From: Escherichia phage CF2
Direction: 5' to 3' (one strand)
Sequence record: KY608966
DNA length: 53,242 nt
Shown here: positions 33,876 to 45,598 of the stretch, one piece after another
Layout of the letters: each line of letters begins with the position of its first letter
How positions within the stretch are numbered: position 1 is the stretch's first letter
Made by a program: the position numbers and the translations under genes
Notes under the pieces: generated by a model
Told to the model about the DNA's origin: nothing
What the model saw: only the letters and a program-made list of their open reading frames with translations
Databases searched by the model: none

Positions 33876-34077
33876 TAAGCCTGAAGTTGTTTATGTTGAC
33901 AGGGTAGTCAAGGTTTATCCGCCTGGTGCGTACCTGGTTAAATGCCATAAGCCTGAATTAACAGGTAACACCTGGAAGGCAATAGGTCAGTTAGCTATTG
34001 AACGTGGAACAGCTCTTGATGATTGTGCAGACAAGATGGACAGCATAATTAACTGGAGTAACAAAGGGGCCGAGTGA
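33802..34077 (+). CDS. o-spanin (Rz1-like lipoprotein), overlapping architecture
   Basis: Starts inside the i-spanin gene in another frame and extends beyond it. Signal and lipobox 'MIRALIPLLLLPFLNSC'. Confidence 0.7.
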   Translation: MTKRQNMIRALIPLLLLPFLNSCADKPEVVYVDRVVKVYPPGAYLVKCHKPELTGNTWKAIGQLAIERGTALDDCADKMDSIINWSNKGAE

Positions 34078-34093
34078 TGGCCCCTTTATTTAT
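34065..34093. terminator. Bidirectional terminator between convergent late (+) and replication (-) units
   Basis: Stem ggggcc/ggcccc (34066-34071/34079-34084), flanked by an A-run and a T-run. Confidence 0.7.
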
Positions 34094-34607: not shown

Positions 34608-36575
34608 TTAGTGTGCCTCTGCCCAGTTACTTTCTATCTTAGCATCAGTAAGAACAGGCACACGAAGCGGTAACACAGTTTCCATGACCCGTACGAAATC
34701 ATAGAATCCATCTTCTGCTTGCTTACCAGACGGTAGAGAGAAGTTAAGCTCATCGTGTACAGTCAGGCGAGGTACGCCAATAACGTCAAAGTAACCGTCT
34801 TCATACCCTTTCAGCATTGCAGACTTCATCTGGTCTGCTGACGACCCTTGCAGCACTCGGTTGATTGCCTTGTGGGTGTCTGCCAGTTTAATGTTCGGAC
34901 CGTACTCCTGACGTGCTTCTTCAAATGGCAAAGGCATCTTACCGAATCCACCACGCTTTGGAACCCATTTGTTGAACCATGTCTTCCGGCCCATAAAGGT
35001 TTCTACGTACCCCTGGCTATAACATAAATCTTCATAATGCTTCATGGTAGCACCAATGAATGGTGCACCCTGATGATACGCTTTCAGAACAGGTTCCGCT
35101 TCTTCAGGCGTCATTGCTAACTTACGGGCAAGAGCATTAAGCATCATGCCATACAACAAACCAAAGTTAATGGTCTTAGCCGGTTTACGCTCTATAACGT
35201 GACCTGAGGCTTCCTTGATAATATCGACCATAACATTGTGGTAATCTGCTTCCGGGTTAGCCGCGAAAATTGCTCGTAACTCATCAGCGCCCGGGCCGAC
35301 TGCAAAATGCGCCATGAATCGATATTCAATTTGGGCGTAGTCTGCTGATCCCCATCGGTGTCCGACATCCGGTACGAAACAAGCACGAAGGAGTGGTCCC
35401 AGTATTTTGTGTCGAGACGGTATATTCTGCAGATTAGGGTCAGATGAGCTAAACCGACCACTAACGGTTCCACCGTCATCACCGCGCATTTGATGGAATT
35501 GACCGTGAAGGAAGCCATTTGTATTCATCCCCAATATATAGCCACGAATAAACGTGGACTGGATTTTCTCATAAGACTTAATCTCAGACACCAGTTCCGC
35601 GAACGGATGGTGCAAGCCTGCTAAGAAGTCTGCCGTAAACGACGGATTGCCCGCCGCTGTTCTGAAGTACTCCAGACCTAAATGGTCAAATGCAAGAGCT
35701 AAGTCCGGACCTGAGTTAACGTTAATGTTAAAGCCAATCTGGTCTTTAATCTGCTGGTGCATTTTCCTTATTTCAGCGCTAAGCGTATCATCCGCTTCTT
35801 TTGCCTTGTCAAGGTCAACACGCACACCCGCAAAACGCATCTTAAGCATTAATGGAATGAGCTTGCACTCCATATAGAATACGTCTGTTAAACACCAGCG
35901 ACTTAACAAAGGCCACTGGGCTTTGATAATGTGTATTGGTAAGTCGGCGTCAGATTCAGCATAGTAACCCACAAGACGAGGAGGTGTTTTGTAGATGTAC
36001 TTTCTGGCTTCACCTGTTGGCTTACAGCCATAAGCATCTGAAATCCATTGGTACATCTCGGCTGAGTCTTTACCTTCGCCTACATACTTTCGTCCAAGTC
36101 CTTCAAGTGCAACACGCGCGCCTGGGTCAAGTAATGCTTCCGCGAATTGTACATCCATGCACAATCCTTTAACTTCCACGCCTTCTGCTGCAAGCCAGCC
36201 CAAGTCATATGTGATGTTAGCACCGACTTTAACTTGGTTAGGTCGCGAGAGTTCGAGCCGAAGCCAACCAAGTACTTCCTCAGCTGGAAGGTTATCCTCT
36301 TCGCCGAGCTCGTGTCTGATTGGGTAGTAAGCTTTGAAGCCGTTGTCCGTAGCGATACTAACTCCAACGATATGACCCTCCCTCCTGGCCCAACCACTAC
36401 CATTTGTATCCATCCCTGGGTCGTATGTTTCACAATCAAGACCGATAATCTTTGCAGAAGACAAGTCCGGGTAATGCGCGCGCGGCCGCCATCCAGTATC
36501 CCTGACGTACGGTATAGGACGGTTGATAGGTTTAACATTCTTTGCACCTTCGAAGCTATCGAATAAAAAGCTCAT
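34608..36575 (-). CDS. Family A DNA polymerase with 3'-5' exonuclease domain
   Basis: Exo I 'IGLDCETYD', motif A 'ADYAQIEYRFMAH', motif B 'KTINFGLLYGM' and motif C 'TVHDEL'. Confidence 0.92.
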   Translation of the reverse strand: MSFLFDSFEGAKNVKPINRPIPYVRDTGWRPRAHYPDLSSAKIIGLDCETYDPGMDTNGSGWARREGHIVGVSIATDNGFKAYYPIRHELGEEDNLPAEEVLGWLRLELSRPNQVKVGANITYDLGWLAAEGVEVKGLCMDVQFAEALLDPGARVALEGLGRKYVGEGKDSAEMYQWISDAYGCKPTGEARKYIYKTPPRLVGYYAESDADLPIHIIKAQWPLLSRWCLTDVFYMECKLIPLMLKMRFAGVRVDLDKAKEADDTLSAEIRKMHQQIKDQIGFNINVNSGPDLALAFDHLGLEYFRTAAGNPSFTADFLAGLHHPFAELVSEIKSYEKIQSTFIRGYILGMNTNGFLHGQFHQMRGDDGGTVSGRFSSSDPNLQNIPSRHKILGPLLRACFVPDVGHRWGSADYAQIEYRFMAHFAVGPGADELRAIFAANPEADYHNVMVDIIKEASGHVIERKPAKTINFGLLYGMMLNALARKLAMTPEEAEPVLKAYHQGAPFIGATMKHYEDLCYSQGYVETFMGRKTWFNKWVPKRGGFGKMPLPFEEARQEYGPNIKLADTHKAINRVLQGSSADQMKSAMLKGYEDGYFDVIGVPRLTVHDELNFSLPSGKQAEDGFYDFVRVMETVLPLRVPVLTDAKIESNWAEAH

Positions 36576-37570
36576 CAGTCCCCTCTCACATACGCAATTA
36601 CAACTGTACGAGTTGAGTTTTCCATTTTGAGCGCCTGACTACCCAGTCCTATTCTTTCCATGCCTTTAGCCAGTTTACTCATCTGACTAATAACACAGTT
36701 GAACGGTTTACTAAACTTAGTCGACTGGAACTTAATGTCGACGGACATCTTTGGAATAATCTTATCTGGTAAGTCTGCCTTTGCAGTTGACTCGCCTGTT
36801 ATCTCCAGAATAGCCTGACCTTCGTCGTACCCAGTAAGCTGGTCCATGACTTCCAGGAACTCAGGAGTGATGGCCTGCATATCCATTTCCATATTGAAGA
36901 ACTTCGATACGTCTGGCCATTTGGCTGCTAGTACCGGAGCATCCATCTGTACACCATCCGCAAAGCCGAAGAACATCTGGCCGCGGGCGTAACCTACACT
37001 TGTGGGTTCCATCTTCAGCTTAACCAGAGCCTCAAGCATTGGTTTGGCTATGGCACATTCAAATTCAAAATCTACATTCAACTTCTCGCGTATCATATAC
37101 TTACCGTTAGTTGCGTAAGCATAACCATCGCGCAGAAGTAAAGATGTTGCCCATATCTGCGGTGCTTCGTTAGGTACCCACTTGGCTAAGGCGGTTAATA
37201 CCGGGAGTAATTCGCCATGTGCTGAATACCAGTTGTTAACTGTAGCAAGCGGCGGTAATGGTTCATTAAGCGCTTGCATTCTTGTTTTAAGTACGCCTGC
37301 TGTGACTGTGAGGTTTCCAGCGGCTGTAATGTTAAAAGTAATCTGTTCAGTTCTTGCCGCATTAACGGCCTTACGAAATGATTCAGCATCCACTTGCAGG
37401 TCTGGGAATCCTTTACATGGCGCTCGTAGTAATACGTTCTTGTAGTATGAATGGATTGTTTCGTTTGCAATCCATATTTTACCCATAAGACCGCTATCAG
37501 TATACTTGATGGGACGAGCTTGTTGAACGGCAGTCTGTATTTGTTTGGTGTCATAGTTAAACTTGCTCAT
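36575..37570 (-). CDS. Putative sliding-clamp (DnaN/beta-like) protein
   Basis: 331 aa. By-eye collinearity with E. coli beta: 'ATNGKYM' with 'ATDGHRL', 'KWPDVSKFF' with 'RFPDYRRVL', and a similar N-terminus and C-terminal strand. Stop and start overlap the polymerase gene. Confidence 0.4.
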   Translation of the reverse strand: MSKFNYDTKQIQTAVQQARPIKYTDSGLMGKIWIANETIHSYYKNVLLRAPCKGFPDLQVDAESFRKAVNAARTEQITFNITAAGNLTVTAGVLKTRMQALNEPLPPLATVNNWYSAHGELLPVLTALAKWVPNEAPQIWATSLLLRDGYAYATNGKYMIREKLNVDFEFECAIAKPMLEALVKLKMEPTSVGYARGQMFFGFADGVQMDAPVLAAKWPDVSKFFNMEMDMQAITPEFLEVMDQLTGYDEGQAILEITGESTAKADLPDKIIPKMSVDIKFQSTKFSKPFNCVISQMSKLAKGMERIGLGSQALKMENSTRTVVIAYVRGD

Positions 37571-37593
37571 AATATAACGGGGCCGAAGCCCCG
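37571..37593 (-). terminator. cUUCGg-tetraloop hairpin (attenuator or RNA stabiliser)
   Basis: The minus sense reads cggggc-UUCG-gccccg followed by 'ttatatt'. The U-tract is weak. Confidence 0.45.
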
Positions 37594-37600
37594 CTCCATC

Positions 37601-38485
37601 TTATACGGCCATTTGGAGTTTGATGTTCGGCATTGGTTTGTACTTCTCAACCATTGGCGCAACATCGGCAGGAGTGAAGTCAAATACTGACACGTCGTAA
37701 ATCGCGTTAATGTCAGGACGGCCTTCAAAGTTAGTGTCCAGGGTAGAATCAGAATTGCTTACGATACGTTGCAGGAAAATCTTTGCCGCGTCGATATGAT
37801 TCTGATAGATGTGATAATCACCCAGCGTAACAGTCATGTCGCCAACACCAGTGCCCAGCTCAGCAGCAATGGTAATCTGCAACATCTGATGAAGCAGGAT
37901 GTCATGTGGCAGACCAAGGATAACGTCCGCACTACGCATATGGAACATCAGCTCTAATTCATTACGGTTGTTAATGAACAGCTGAAAACCATGGTAACAA
38001 GGCGGAAGGGCCATGGCGTCCATCTCTTGTGGGTTCCATGCCGTAATGTATGCCCGGCGGTCAGTAGGCTTAACCTTCAACGTTTCAATAACGTCTTTAA
38101 GCTGGTTAGTAAGAACACCATTCTTATAGAAAGGCTTAACCCATTGTACGCCGTATACAGGACCTAAGTCACGGTTGTCTGGTGTACCCCAACGTTTGTT
38201 TGCGTCTTGCAGGTTACCTTCCCACCAGTTGCAGCCAAAGCCTTTGAGCGTGTCGACGTTTGAAATGCCGTTTATAAAGCAATAGAGCTCAGCAGCAACA
38301 GCTTTGATGTTAACAGGTTTAAACACAGGCACCATCAGTTTGTTGTCGTTGAAAGCCAGCTTAAATGCTGTACCAAAACAACGGCGGGTACCAACACCTG
38401 TACGGTCTACAACATCCTCACCTTTACGCAGGATAAAAGAAATGATGTCGCTGTAAAGAGAATCGATAGTGCTGTATGTTTTCAT
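37601..38485 (-). CDS. Thymidylate-synthase-family enzyme with Asp at the ThyA Asn177 position (predicted dCMP-specific methylase or hydroxymethylase)
   Basis: 'DLGPVYGVQW', 'DRRAYITAWN', catalytic 'ALPPCY' and 'GDYHIYQNH' are ThyA-like. 'HMRSADVILGLPHD' aligns without gaps to ThyA 'YQRSCDVFLGLPFN' and T4 gp42 'NMRSNDVVFGFRND'. Confidence 0.75.
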   Translation of the reverse strand: MKTYSTIDSLYSDIISFILRKGEDVVDRTGVGTRRCFGTAFKLAFNDNKLMVPVFKPVNIKAVAAELYCFINGISNVDTLKGFGCNWWEGNLQDANKRWGTPDNRDLGPVYGVQWVKPFYKNGVLTNQLKDVIETLKVKPTDRRAYITAWNPQEMDAMALPPCYHGFQLFINNRNELELMFHMRSADVILGLPHDILLHQMLQITIAAELGTGVGDMTVTLGDYHIYQNHIDAAKIFLQRIVSNSDSTLDTNFEGRPDINAIYDVSVFDFTPADVAPMVEKYKPMPNIKLQMAV

Positions 38486-39078
38486 TAAAACAGTTCCTTT
38501 TGAGCCGGGTTAACGTGTGCGTCGATGATTGCCTGGATGTCAGGTGCTTTCCATCCCTCAGGCTTAACAATATCCTGACCGGACTTATGCTTGCTGTTGC
38601 TTGCATCAGGCTTAGCGCGTTCTTTCGCCATGTTAGCAGCCTGTACCGCATCCCATGCTGCGTCAAGTGGCCAGTTGTTGTTTGCACACCAGGTAATCAG
38701 GTGGATAATTAACTGGGCCAGACGGTCGCAATGAGTGTCTTCAGTATCCTTAACGTATACAATAAGGCCATCAGCATCGAAACGGTCCATAAATCCGCAT
38801 GGCGTAGTTAACAGAATCGGATACTCAAATTCGTTGGTGAACCATGCGGTCTGGTCATACAGGTATAACGTACCTGCAGCAATGTAAATTAAATCTACAA
38901 TACCGTCTAAGAAGCCAGCTTTGTCGCCGTCCTTCTTAGCTTGTTTAATTTCTTCCATCTCCTCAATAAGACGGTCGTAACGAAGCTTGAACTCAGGTTT
39001 ACCGCCTTGACTAACAGGCTTGAGGTCAAACTTCTCATGAAAAGCGGTAACGCCTGCAGCAATTTTACTGAATCGCAT
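38485..39078 (-). CDS. MazG-like nucleotide pyrophosphohydrolase
   Basis: 'RLIEEMEEIKQA..FLDGIVDLIYIAAG' (the EExxE...D..D pattern). AAGGAG lies 7 nt upstream. Confidence 0.65.
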   Translation of the reverse strand: MRFSKIAAGVTAFHEKFDLKPVSQGGKPEFKLRYDRLIEEMEEIKQAKKDGDKAGFLDGIVDLIYIAAGTLYLYDQTAWFTNEFEYPILLTTPCGFMDRFDADGLIVYVKDTEDTHCDRLAQLIIHLITWCANNNWPLDAAWDAVQAANMAKERAKPDASNSKHKSGQDIVKPEGWKAPDIQAIIDAHVNPAQKELF

Positions 39079-39463
39079 TTCGTAACTCCTTACAAACAGT
39101 TTCGATAAACTTACGTTTAATTTCTGTAGACCAGATAATATGACGAGCCTGTTCTAAAGTGTCCCAACGTTCTTTACCCACAGGAAAGGGAACAATGAAA
39201 AGGCCGGTACGGGATATGCGCTTGATAAACGGGAATTTACAGCGCATGGTTGTTTCAAACTTGATAAAGTTTGTTTGCACATCGCGTGTAAACTTGACCT
39301 TATCAAATTCATGTTCAAGAGTTTGAGCAATGTTGCATACTTCCTGGAAAGAAGATGCAGGCAAGTAATCTTCGCGGCCGACGGTGTTCACGTAGTCGAT
39401 TTGGCCTTCTAGCCGAAGTATCCAAATCCTGTAATAAGCTTCAGCAACACGTTGTAGGTTCAT
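39065..39463 (-). CDS. Hypothetical protein
   Basis: 132-aa ORF, first gene downstream of the promoter at 39490-39518. Confidence 0.55.
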   Translation of the reverse strand: MNLQRVAEAYYRIWILRLEGQIDYVNTVGREDYLPASSFQEVCNIAQTLEHEFDKVKFTRDVQTNFIKFETTMRCKFPFIKRISRTGLFIVPFPVGKERWDTLEQARHIIWSTEIKRKFIETVCKELRNAIQ

Positions 39464-39489: not shown

Positions 39490-39518
39490 ATTATACCACA
39501 TCACTCTCTAGTGGTAAA
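39490..39518 (-). promoter_or_regulatory. sigma70-type promoter TTTACC-17-(TGg)TATAAT
   Basis: The minus strand reads 'gctTTTACCactagagagtgatgTGgTATAAT'. Confidence 0.7.
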
Positions 39519-40714: not shown

Positions 40715-40936
40715 CTAGAAAGGCACATCATAGTCAAAAAGTTTACATCCGGAAGACAGGACTGCCGGCGGTGGTGTTTTGCCTCCGGATAACAGGCAAC
40801 CTCCTGCCTGAAAACTACGGCAGTTTGCACAGCTCATATCCTGCAAGTATATAATAAGCTGTCGGCGAACATGCCGTGGTAAAGCTTTAGCCTGGGTTGC
40901 TACCCGTTCAAATAGTTCTCTGTCATCGAGCGCCAT
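40715..40936 (-). CDS. Hypothetical Cys-containing small protein
   Basis: 73 aa with 'CANCRSFQAGGC..GC'. Overlaps the helicase gene end by 14 nt. Confidence 0.5.
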   Translation of the reverse strand: MALDDRELFERVATQAKALPRHVRRQLIIYLQDMSCANCRSFQAGGCLLSGGKTPPPAVLSSGCKLFDYDVPF

Positions 40937-44713: not shown

Positions 44714-45598
44714 TTATTCGCTGGTTCCTTTCTCAGCTTGAGCGGCTTTCTTCGCCATCCAAGCTTGGTGCTTCTCTTTCGATTCGTCTGAACCGATTTT
44801 AGTAAGCTGCACGTTCGGGTCTTCGTTCTGCATCTGTTCTGCAGCTCGACCTGTCAGAAGCAGGTAACTGTCTGACTCCGGATGGTAGTACCACAGCTGG
44901 TAAGGATGATAGCCTTGTAGCTTATCATAAATCCAACCAAGATCTGCAGGTTCACGTGCATCCAGCTCACGACCTGGTGCGTTACGGCACTTAGCTTCCC
45001 ATTGGTAGTCAGGCTGGGTCTGGATGTAGCGCTCGCTGTTACCGTTGGCGTCAGGCGCAGTCATACGTAAAGCAAGCACCGCATCCATCAGGTACGGCAA
45101 CTGCTTAGGTAGCTGTTGGCCAGGCATAAGAGGTGAGTACAGCATTGCACCAGTAACCTCGTCCTTGTTCTTCTCAAGCTTGCACAAGTATGCAACGCTG
45201 AAAGGCAGGTCACGGAACTGACGCATGATGTACATCATCTTGTCGTTGGTGTTACCATACGCCTGTCGTTTGTCATTAACCTGCGACTTCTCATAGTCCA
45301 GACAAACTTCAGCCACATCTGACAGCGAATCGAAAATCAGATGTTCATACTTCTGCGCATCCTTACTTTCGGTAAGCCATTTGTACAACGCCAGAATGTC
45401 GTTGAACGTATTGATTGGTGTAGAGTCGATGTCAGCATCTGCAATCGACATCAAACCGCCTTCAGCGTTAATAACAAGAACCTTATCGTGAGGCAAGGTC
45501 TTAGCCAGGCTGGTTTTACCAACACCTGATGCGCCGTAAATAGCGACCTTAGGTCGCTTATTTTCTACGGCTTGTTTAGTAGATACAATCTGAACCAT
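44714..45598 (-). CDS. Sak4-like / AAA_24 RecA-fold ATPase (recombination)
   Basis: Walker A 'IYGASGVGKTSLA' and Walker B 'HLIFDSLS'. Confidence 0.7.
   Translation of the reverse strand: MVQIVSTKQAVENKRPKVAIYGASGVGKTSLAKTLPHDKVLVINAEGGLMSIADADIDSTPINTFNDILALYKWLTESKDAQKYEHLIFDSLSDVAEVCLDYEKSQVNDKRQAYGNTNDKMMYIMRQFRDLPFSVAYLCKLEKNKDEVTGAMLYSPLMPGQQLPKQLPYLMDAVLALRMTAPDANGNSERYIQTQPDYQWEAKCRNAPGRELDAREPADLGWIYDKLQGYHPYQLWYYHPESDSYLLLTGRAAEQMQNEDPNVQLTKIGSDESKEKHQAWMAKKAAQAEKGTSE

Follow-up and report, generated by a model that had tools for sequence, protein, structure and literature searches.

A three-domain beta-type sliding clamp encoded next to a family-A DNA polymerase in Escherichia phage CF2, with a candidate clamp-binding peptide at the polymerase N-terminus

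The window analysed here, 53,242 nucleotides of Escherichia phage CF2 (sequence record KY608966), carries on its minus strand a gene with an ATG start for a 331-aa homologue of the beta-type (DnaN-like) sliding clamp (36575..37570), followed directly by the gene for a 655-aa family-A DNA polymerase with a 3'–5' exonuclease domain (34608..36575). We regard it as practically certain that the first of these genes encodes a phage three-domain clamp of the DnaN type, and we consider it likely that this clamp tethers the adjacent polymerase to DNA through a short peptide at the N-terminus of the polymerase. In the mechanism that we propose, both proteins would be made from one mRNA, probably by coupled translation, and the polymerase would dock in the hydrophobic cleft between clamp domains II and III with its flexible N-terminal peptide, which is S-F-L-F-D here and G-[LFM]-F-W-x-D in most relatives. 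Docking would follow the manner of bacterial clamp-binding motifs and would give the 53-kb phage its own processive replicase, with the clamp placed on DNA by the host gamma-complex or by a route that needs no dedicated loader. The contact between peptide and pocket, the stimulation of processivity and the loading route are the predicted parts of this scheme.

The clamp gene was assigned from its open reading frame (ORF), its match to PHROG 947, profile searches, a structural model and Foldseek. As a single sequence, the protein matches no Pfam family and, by phmmer, no PDB chain. A 12-sequence profile searched against the PDB recovered two beta clamps (E 0.006 and 0.11), and an exhaustive profile search enlarged the family to 2325 cluster representatives at 50% identity, with a length of about 320 aa. 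For a 127-sequence profile, the best 18 PDB chains are beta sliding clamps without exception (best E 8.8e-12). Nine of these 127 family members match Pfam DNA_pol3_beta_2 (PF02767), and the family hidden Markov model (HMM) matches E. coli DnaN (366 aa) with an E value of 3.6e-13. The AlphaFold2 (AF2) model of the clamp, with a predicted local distance difference test (pLDDT) score of 89.7 and a predicted template-modelling (TM) score of 0.82, shows the strand–helix–strand clamp motif three times. Foldseek superposes this model on the beta clamps of B. subtilis, E. coli, H. pylori and other bacteria (E ~1e-19, TM score 0.75–0.81) in alignments that run the full length of the protein (364–383 columns), although the identity is only 10–14%; a search of BFVD with the same model returns many phage proteins that bear the name beta clamp. 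Since the match to beta clamps extends over the full length and the profile finds beta clamps only, the protein is a three-domain clamp of the DnaN type. A two-domain clamp of the PCNA or T4 gp45 type, which forms a trimeric ring, was considered and ruled out, because the model has three domains and the top PDB matches are beta clamps.

An earlier note, made from the letters alone, had proposed this ORF as a DnaN-like clamp candidate, and the 127-sequence profile, the AF2 model and Foldseek confirm it. The note had also aligned the protein by eye with E. coli beta. Three of its blocks (YAYATNGKYMI with RTVATDGHRLA, KWPDVSKFF with GRFPDYRRVL, and VDAESFRKAV...NLTVTAG) are reproduced by profile alignment to solved clamps and E. 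coli DnaN, and the N- and C-terminal matches are covered only by the structural superposition. Of the three clamp domains and the dimeric ring that it expected of an AlphaFold model, the three domains were found in the AF2 model and by Foldseek, and the ring is taken up below as a prediction. Regarding the client pocket, the highly conserved residues Thr154 and Trp218-Pro219 (window numbering) align with Thr172 and Phe241-Pro242 of E. coli DnaN, which line the peptide cleft in solved structures. The clamps of many relatives end in GMRL, comparable to the MPMRL end of the E. coli protein. These features are consistent with a retained domain II/III client pocket, as predicted from the alignments.

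The neighbouring polymerase ORF matches Pfam DNA_pol_A (E 5e-63) and DNA_pol_A_exo1, the 3'–5' exonuclease domain (E 7e-8). On the mRNA strand, the clamp reading frame ends GUG AGA GGG GAC UGA and the polymerase frame begins AUG AGC; the clamp stop (36577..36575) and the polymerase ATG (36575..36573) have one base in common, which gives the TGATG overlap at 36573..36577 (minus strand). Within the last clamp codons (V R G D stop) lies the Shine–Dalgarno-like sequence GAGAGGGG (36587..36580, minus strand), which would serve the polymerase. The translation of the 331-aa ORF and its overlap with the polymerase start are as the earlier note had quoted them, and the coupling that it described to a family-A enzyme stands.

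The pairing of clamp and polymerase recurs elsewhere. We compared 93 loci that contain a member of the clamp family. A polymerase gene lies 3' of the clamp gene on the same strand in 89 of them, and the other four loci are cut off. The clamp stop overlaps the polymerase start in 41 loci and the gap is at most 60 nt in 21 more (62 of the 89 together); in loci with a wider gap, a further gene intervenes, such as a GIY-YIG-like ORF in locus L107. The partner is not always family A: PHROG 1252 takes its place in Seuratvirus, Nipunavirus, BcepGomr and most metagenomic loci. This polymerase has no Pfam match and no BLASTP similarity to the PolA of the window, and all 15 PDB matches of its profile are B-family polymerases (Pol alpha, E. 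coli Pol II, S. solfataricus PolB1; E ~1e-4). For the last two reasons we assign PHROG 1252 to family B, and thus one clamp family serves two unrelated polymerase families. We judge it likely that the clamp would act as the processivity partner of the adjacent polymerase.

The same loci bear on a different reading, in which the clamp would mainly serve another role, as a platform for phage factors (compare T4 gp45 in late transcription and the use of host beta by Mu) or as a decoy that ties up the clamp loader or the clamp-binding proteins of the host while the phage takes over. Clamps are general tool-belts, phage late transcription via clamps is documented (PMC2988020, PMC12867686), and a MazG-like protein of the same operon ends in QKELF, a hint of more than one client. 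We nevertheless hold this reading to be very improbable, as the clamp gene is tied to the polymerase gene in every informative locus with either polymerase family, the invariant terminal motif sits on the polymerase and not on another protein, and the clamp gene lies within an early replication and nucleotide operon.

The terminal motif is a peptide common to the N-termini of the clamp-linked polymerases, M(x)R-x-D-[AS]-x-G-[LFM]-F-W-x-D-x-P. Either R-x-D-x-x-G-[LFM]-F-W-x-D or a shortened LF[WD] form is present in all 74 unique polymerase N-termini, 16 of family A and 58 of family B. Across 120 PolA homologues (49–99% identity), the motif decays stepwise through MGLFWDE, MSLFWD, MTLFWLP, MNNLFDW and MLFDDF to MSFLFD[SDGE]F, the form found in Rosemountvirus, the genus of the window, and in Loughboroughvirus, with MSFLFD invariant in that clade. 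All forms share a core of LF followed by W, F or D and an acidic residue, and S-F-L-F-D-S of the window aligns without a gap with G-M-F-W-E-D of Vibrio phage 033B. In each of four further lineages with shortened motifs, a clamp of the family lies just 5' of the polymerase gene (E 1e-58 to 1e-67). An HMM of the N-terminal 48 aa of PolA matches all 57 PolB-type N-termini with a best E value of 2.8e-16, a score inflated by the choice of sequences with a motif regular expression; an HMM of the remaining ~620 aa of PolA finds nothing among the PolB-type proteins (best E 0.75).

In the window, the candidate peptide comprises residues 1–14 of the polymerase (MSFLFDSFEGAKNV; codons 36534..36575, minus strand), delimited by disorder and conservation as a flexible N-terminal tail. 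The AF2 model of this polymerase has a pLDDT of 90.1; residues 1–14 are the sole segment below 50, and order begins near residue 21. A terminal segment that is invariant yet predicted to be disordered is what characterizes short linear binding motifs. The earlier note had proposed a search of the polymerase C-terminus for a clamp-binding motif. None is present there (the protein ends ESNWAEAH), a regular-expression search of the window polymerase finds no canonical QL[SD]LF-like motif, and the candidate lies instead at the extreme N-terminus. That this peptide is a clamp-binding motif through which the polymerase would hold the clamp is, in our view, moderately likely.

The closest PolA relatives without a clamp serve as a control. 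In the whole genomes of these two, Pseudomonas phage M6 and Bordetella phage CN1, the clamp family HMM at maximum sensitivity finds nothing above noise. Their polymerases lack G-[LFM]-F-W, and the same N-terminal place holds MSYLQPPLF in M6 and MQFPLF in CN1, so that QPPLF and QFPLF form Q-x-x-L-F pentapeptides like the bacterial beta-binding consensus QL[SD]LF. The PolA of phage DSL-LC04 starts (VKT)MSLFP, and that phage is clamp-less over the ~42 of its 61.5 kb that were checked. The resemblance of the M6, CN1 and DSL-LC04 N-termini to host beta-clamp-binding motifs suggests that these polymerases may recruit the host clamp. We infer that the PolA clade generally uses an N-terminal clamp-binding motif, which would engage the host clamp if there is no phage clamp and the phage clamp otherwise. 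A second N-terminal element, PPxPxxxW.xPxYLPxLxxA, is common to A- and B-family partners (loci L012–L014 and L016–L095); its version in the PolA of the window, RPIPYVRDTGWRPRAHYPDLSSA, is well ordered in the model. It also occurs in the clamp-less PolAs and thus may be structural.

These comparisons also bear on whether the peptide binds some other partner, such as the primase-helicase, the single-stranded DNA-binding protein (SSB) or Sak4, with the clamp contacted elsewhere or not at all. In favour of such a partner, other replisomes make contacts with SSB and helicase through short acidic or aromatic tails. Against it, motif and clamp occur together in 100% of the examined loci, the motif goes with the clamp whichever of two unrelated polymerase families is present, and the nearest clamp-less relatives have the canonical beta-binding QxxLF instead. 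The LF core of the peptide also matches known clamp-binding motifs. We thus consider another partner decidedly unlikely and retain the clamp as the probable target of the peptide.

The replisome as encoded has no recognizable clamp loader, as the earlier note had observed; Pfam, PHROGs, a Walker-A scan and a query with a known phage loader all agree with it. Pfam and PHROGs find no clamp-loader AAA+ protein among the early and replication ORFs of the window. In the Walker-A scan of all window ORFs, the matches are the dTMP kinase, the terminase, Sak4 and the primase-helicase, plus a single C-terminal hit in an ORF of 190 aa without a Pfam family; a relative annotated in the pharokka style lists no clamp loader. 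As a positive control, gene Pan1_65 of Pseudanabaena phage Pan1 matches DNA_pol3_delta2 at E 8.8e-23; a search with this loader yields no match in either the window or related loci totalling 1.26 Mb. Pan1 (L099, 17072..23009) is a distant relative with a PolA that starts MVGLINGLFDVV, a family clamp (E 5.5e-25), an epsilon-like exonuclease (RNase_T) and the loader-type AAA+ gene. Sak4/AAA_24 of the window (44714..45598) was considered as a cryptic loader and rejected, as it matches a ssDNA-annealing/RecA-like family and not the clamp-loader AAA+ proteins. With no loader of the phage's own, the clamp must either be put on DNA by the host gamma-complex or get there with no dedicated loader at all. 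Surveys find loaders with fewer than half of viral clamps, and for loader-less clamps they propose the host loader or a non-ring, basic mode of direct DNA binding (PMC3201878, PMC4889955).

The choice between a ring and a non-ring protein depends in part on charge. The isoelectric point (pI) of the clamp family has a median of 5.7, with 68% of members below 6 and only 10% above 7, and E. coli DnaN has a pI of 5.25; by the criterion of PMC3201878, the family looks ring-like. A head-to-tail dimeric ring would be the predicted assembly, with indirect support from this acidic family pI and from the superposition of all three domains of the model on the half-ring of a beta monomer. We rate a closed ring in need of loading as slightly better than an even chance. 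Our favoured reading, held loosely, is that the ring is loaded by the host complex, spontaneously or with the help of the polymerase. In the contrary arrangement, the clamp-fold protein would be a non-ring processivity subunit of the herpesvirus UL42/UL44 type, which lies with a basic face on DNA in a stable 1:1 holoenzyme and needs no loader. Such a subunit would fit the lack of a loader in the window and in the related loci, the TGATG coupling, which suggests roughly equimolar synthesis with the polymerase, the pI of 7.6 of the window clamp, which exceeds that of cellular ring clamps, and the mode proposed for loader-less viral clamps in PMC3201878. The acidic median of the family and the half-ring superposition speak against it, as do the close Rosemount- and Loughborough-type clamps, whose pI ranges from 5.8 to 7.7 without a consistent basic shift. 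Thus, we consider a non-ring subunit unlikely.

Several observations count against the clamp as a tether of the polymerase and temper our view of it. The same pI of 7.6 lies above that of typical ring clamps, and the lack of a loader, together with an identity of only 10–14% to bacterial clamps, makes loading by the host gamma-complex not obvious. Regarding the peptide, the SFLFD of Rosemountvirus is the most divergent version of the motif consensus, and the HMM that links the A- and B-type N-termini carries the selection bias given above. The literature found on Rosemountvirus and Queuovirinae clamps, or on the clamp family, consists of annotations, with no experiment on any member. Finally, the clamp gene is truncated or split in some deposits, with 214 aa in SPHG1 and fragments in rivia and vB_SenM-1 (186+150 aa and 105 aa); this could mean that the gene is dispensable or could reflect sequencing error.

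The identification of the clamp is not novel. Salmonella phage BP63 shares 98.7% identity with the region, and 56 phage records cover 80% or more of it, mostly at 95–99% identity. In dozens of GenBank records of Rosemountvirus, the gene is already named 'DNA polymerase beta subunit' or 'DNA polymerase processivity factor', and its protein matches PHROG 947, 'DNA polymerase processivity factor', at E 1.8e-46. The earlier note had called a dedicated clamp of this kind an unusual replisome design; this description does not survive the annotations in these records and in PHROG 947, the 2325 family representatives and the published surveys. Among these relatives, PP583539.1 is a Rosemountvirus genome of 98% identity that was submitted under the name 'Listeria phage', likely a mislabel.

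What may be new is the wider arrangement: a loader-less family of phage beta clamps, a portable N-terminal module swapped between A- and B-family polymerases, and clamp-less sisters that would use host beta. We put this forward tentatively, at a little short of even chances. In the papers searched, we found no description of the portable N-terminal module, of the QxxLF replacement in clamp-less relatives or of loader-less operation, each of which we infer from sequence comparison. If the arrangement is true, it would represent evolutionary switching between a hijacked host clamp and a self-encoded one. A widespread loader-less clamp family bears on how clamps reach DNA without a dedicated ATPase, and the same clamp seems able to accept a polymerase of either family, A or B, through one short N-terminal peptide. 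If confirmed, the set of clamp, peptide and polymerase would offer a compact system for engineering processive PolA enzymes and a natural experiment on the swapping of host and own clamps.

The two genes belong to a leftward operon that runs, in order, from a promoter-like site (39518..39490, minus strand; an annotated promoter in BP63) through a 132-aa protein, a MazG-like pyrophosphohydrolase and thymidylate synthase (together 37601..39463, minus strand; assigned by Pfam and PHROGs as upstream genes of the same transcription unit) to the clamp, PolA, two small ORFs and a terminator. The terminator that closes the replication operon is an inverted repeat at 34063..34087, found by a terminator scan; the BP63 annotation places rho-independent terminators on both strands. 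In the 30-nt gap between thyA and the clamp gene, GGAG is followed by the hairpin CGGGGC-UUCG-GCCCCG (37578..37597, minus strand), 8 nt 5' of the clamp ATG. The RNA fold of this region is -19.1 kcal/mol with a z-score of only -1.55, and the terminator scan made no call at the hairpin. It could move a distant Shine–Dalgarno sequence near the start codon or be a processing or attenuation signal. Farther upstream lie genes for a DEAD/ResIII helicase, a Cas4-like exonuclease, a dCMP deaminase, a DUF669 SSB-like protein and the Sak4/AAA_24 ATPase (Pfam, PHROGs), and the primase-helicase gene lies farther upstream of the operon in divergent orientation.

On the 5' side of the clamp, thyA and MazG in the Rosemountvirus window take the place of a 7-deazaguanine DNA-modification cluster; in Queuovirinae-type phages (L012–L015, L096 and L098), the clamp–polymerase pair directly follows such a cluster (queC/D/E, folE, tgt/DpdA-like). 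The MazG-like nucleotide pyrophosphohydrolase of the window (38485..39078, minus strand) ends NPAQKELF-COOH (codons ~38488..38502). Its homologues in Loughboroughvirus have a C-terminal QLELL or QMELL, and the ending is not kept in more distant relatives. The QKELF end resembles the canonical beta-clamp-binding pentapeptide and suggests a putative second clamp client. A 73-aa Cys-rich protein (40715..40936, minus strand), whose gene overlaps the helicase start, has the C-terminus KLFDYDVPF, and a C-terminal F[DE]Y.[VI]PF is kept in its relatives.

Lastly, we compared the phage system with known clamps and processivity factors. It shares with the bacterial beta clamp (E. coli 2POL, B. subtilis 4TR6) the three-domain fold over the full chain (TM score 0.80), profile homology, the equivalents of Thr172 and Phe241-Pro242, a hydrophobic C-terminal tail and an acidic family pI. 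However, the phage protein is 10–14% identical to these clamps, about 35 residues shorter and without a Pfam match; its partner is a polymerase of family A or B, not C, no cognate loader is encoded, and the partner motif is N-terminal and reads G-[LFM]-F-W-x-D or SFLFD, not QL[SD]LF. Phage homologues of PolIII-beta were catalogued by Kazlauskas & Venclovas in phage 73, BcepGomr, 0305phi8-36, Ma-LMM01 and RSL1 (PMC3201878). The BcepGomr protein belongs to the present clamp family and poses the same loader-less puzzle, whereas that study sought C-terminal motifs and did not describe the N-terminal polymerase motif or the swap between families A and B. Unlike the phage of the window, Ma-LMM01, RSL1 and Pan1 have a gamma-like loader subunit.

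In T7 gp5–thioredoxin and herpes simplex virus (HSV) UL30–UL42, an accessory subunit gives a viral polymerase processivity without a loader; thioredoxin does not have the clamp fold, however, and UL42, a basic monomer, makes direct contact with DNA. The gp45–gp43 pair of T4 and RB69 offers a parallel to the proposed contact: there, the phage polymerase captures the phage clamp with a short hydrophobic peptide at its end, and the RB69 gp43 tail, SLFDMFDF, resembles MSFLFDSFEG of the window polymerase. In contrast to the system described here, gp45 is a two-domain trimer loaded by gp44/62, and the motif is C-terminal and is found on a family-B polymerase only. The position of the candidate motif has a parallel in E. 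coli Hda, which carries the clamp-binding motif QL[SP]LPL at its extreme N-terminus, although Hda is a regulatory AAA+ protein and not a polymerase.

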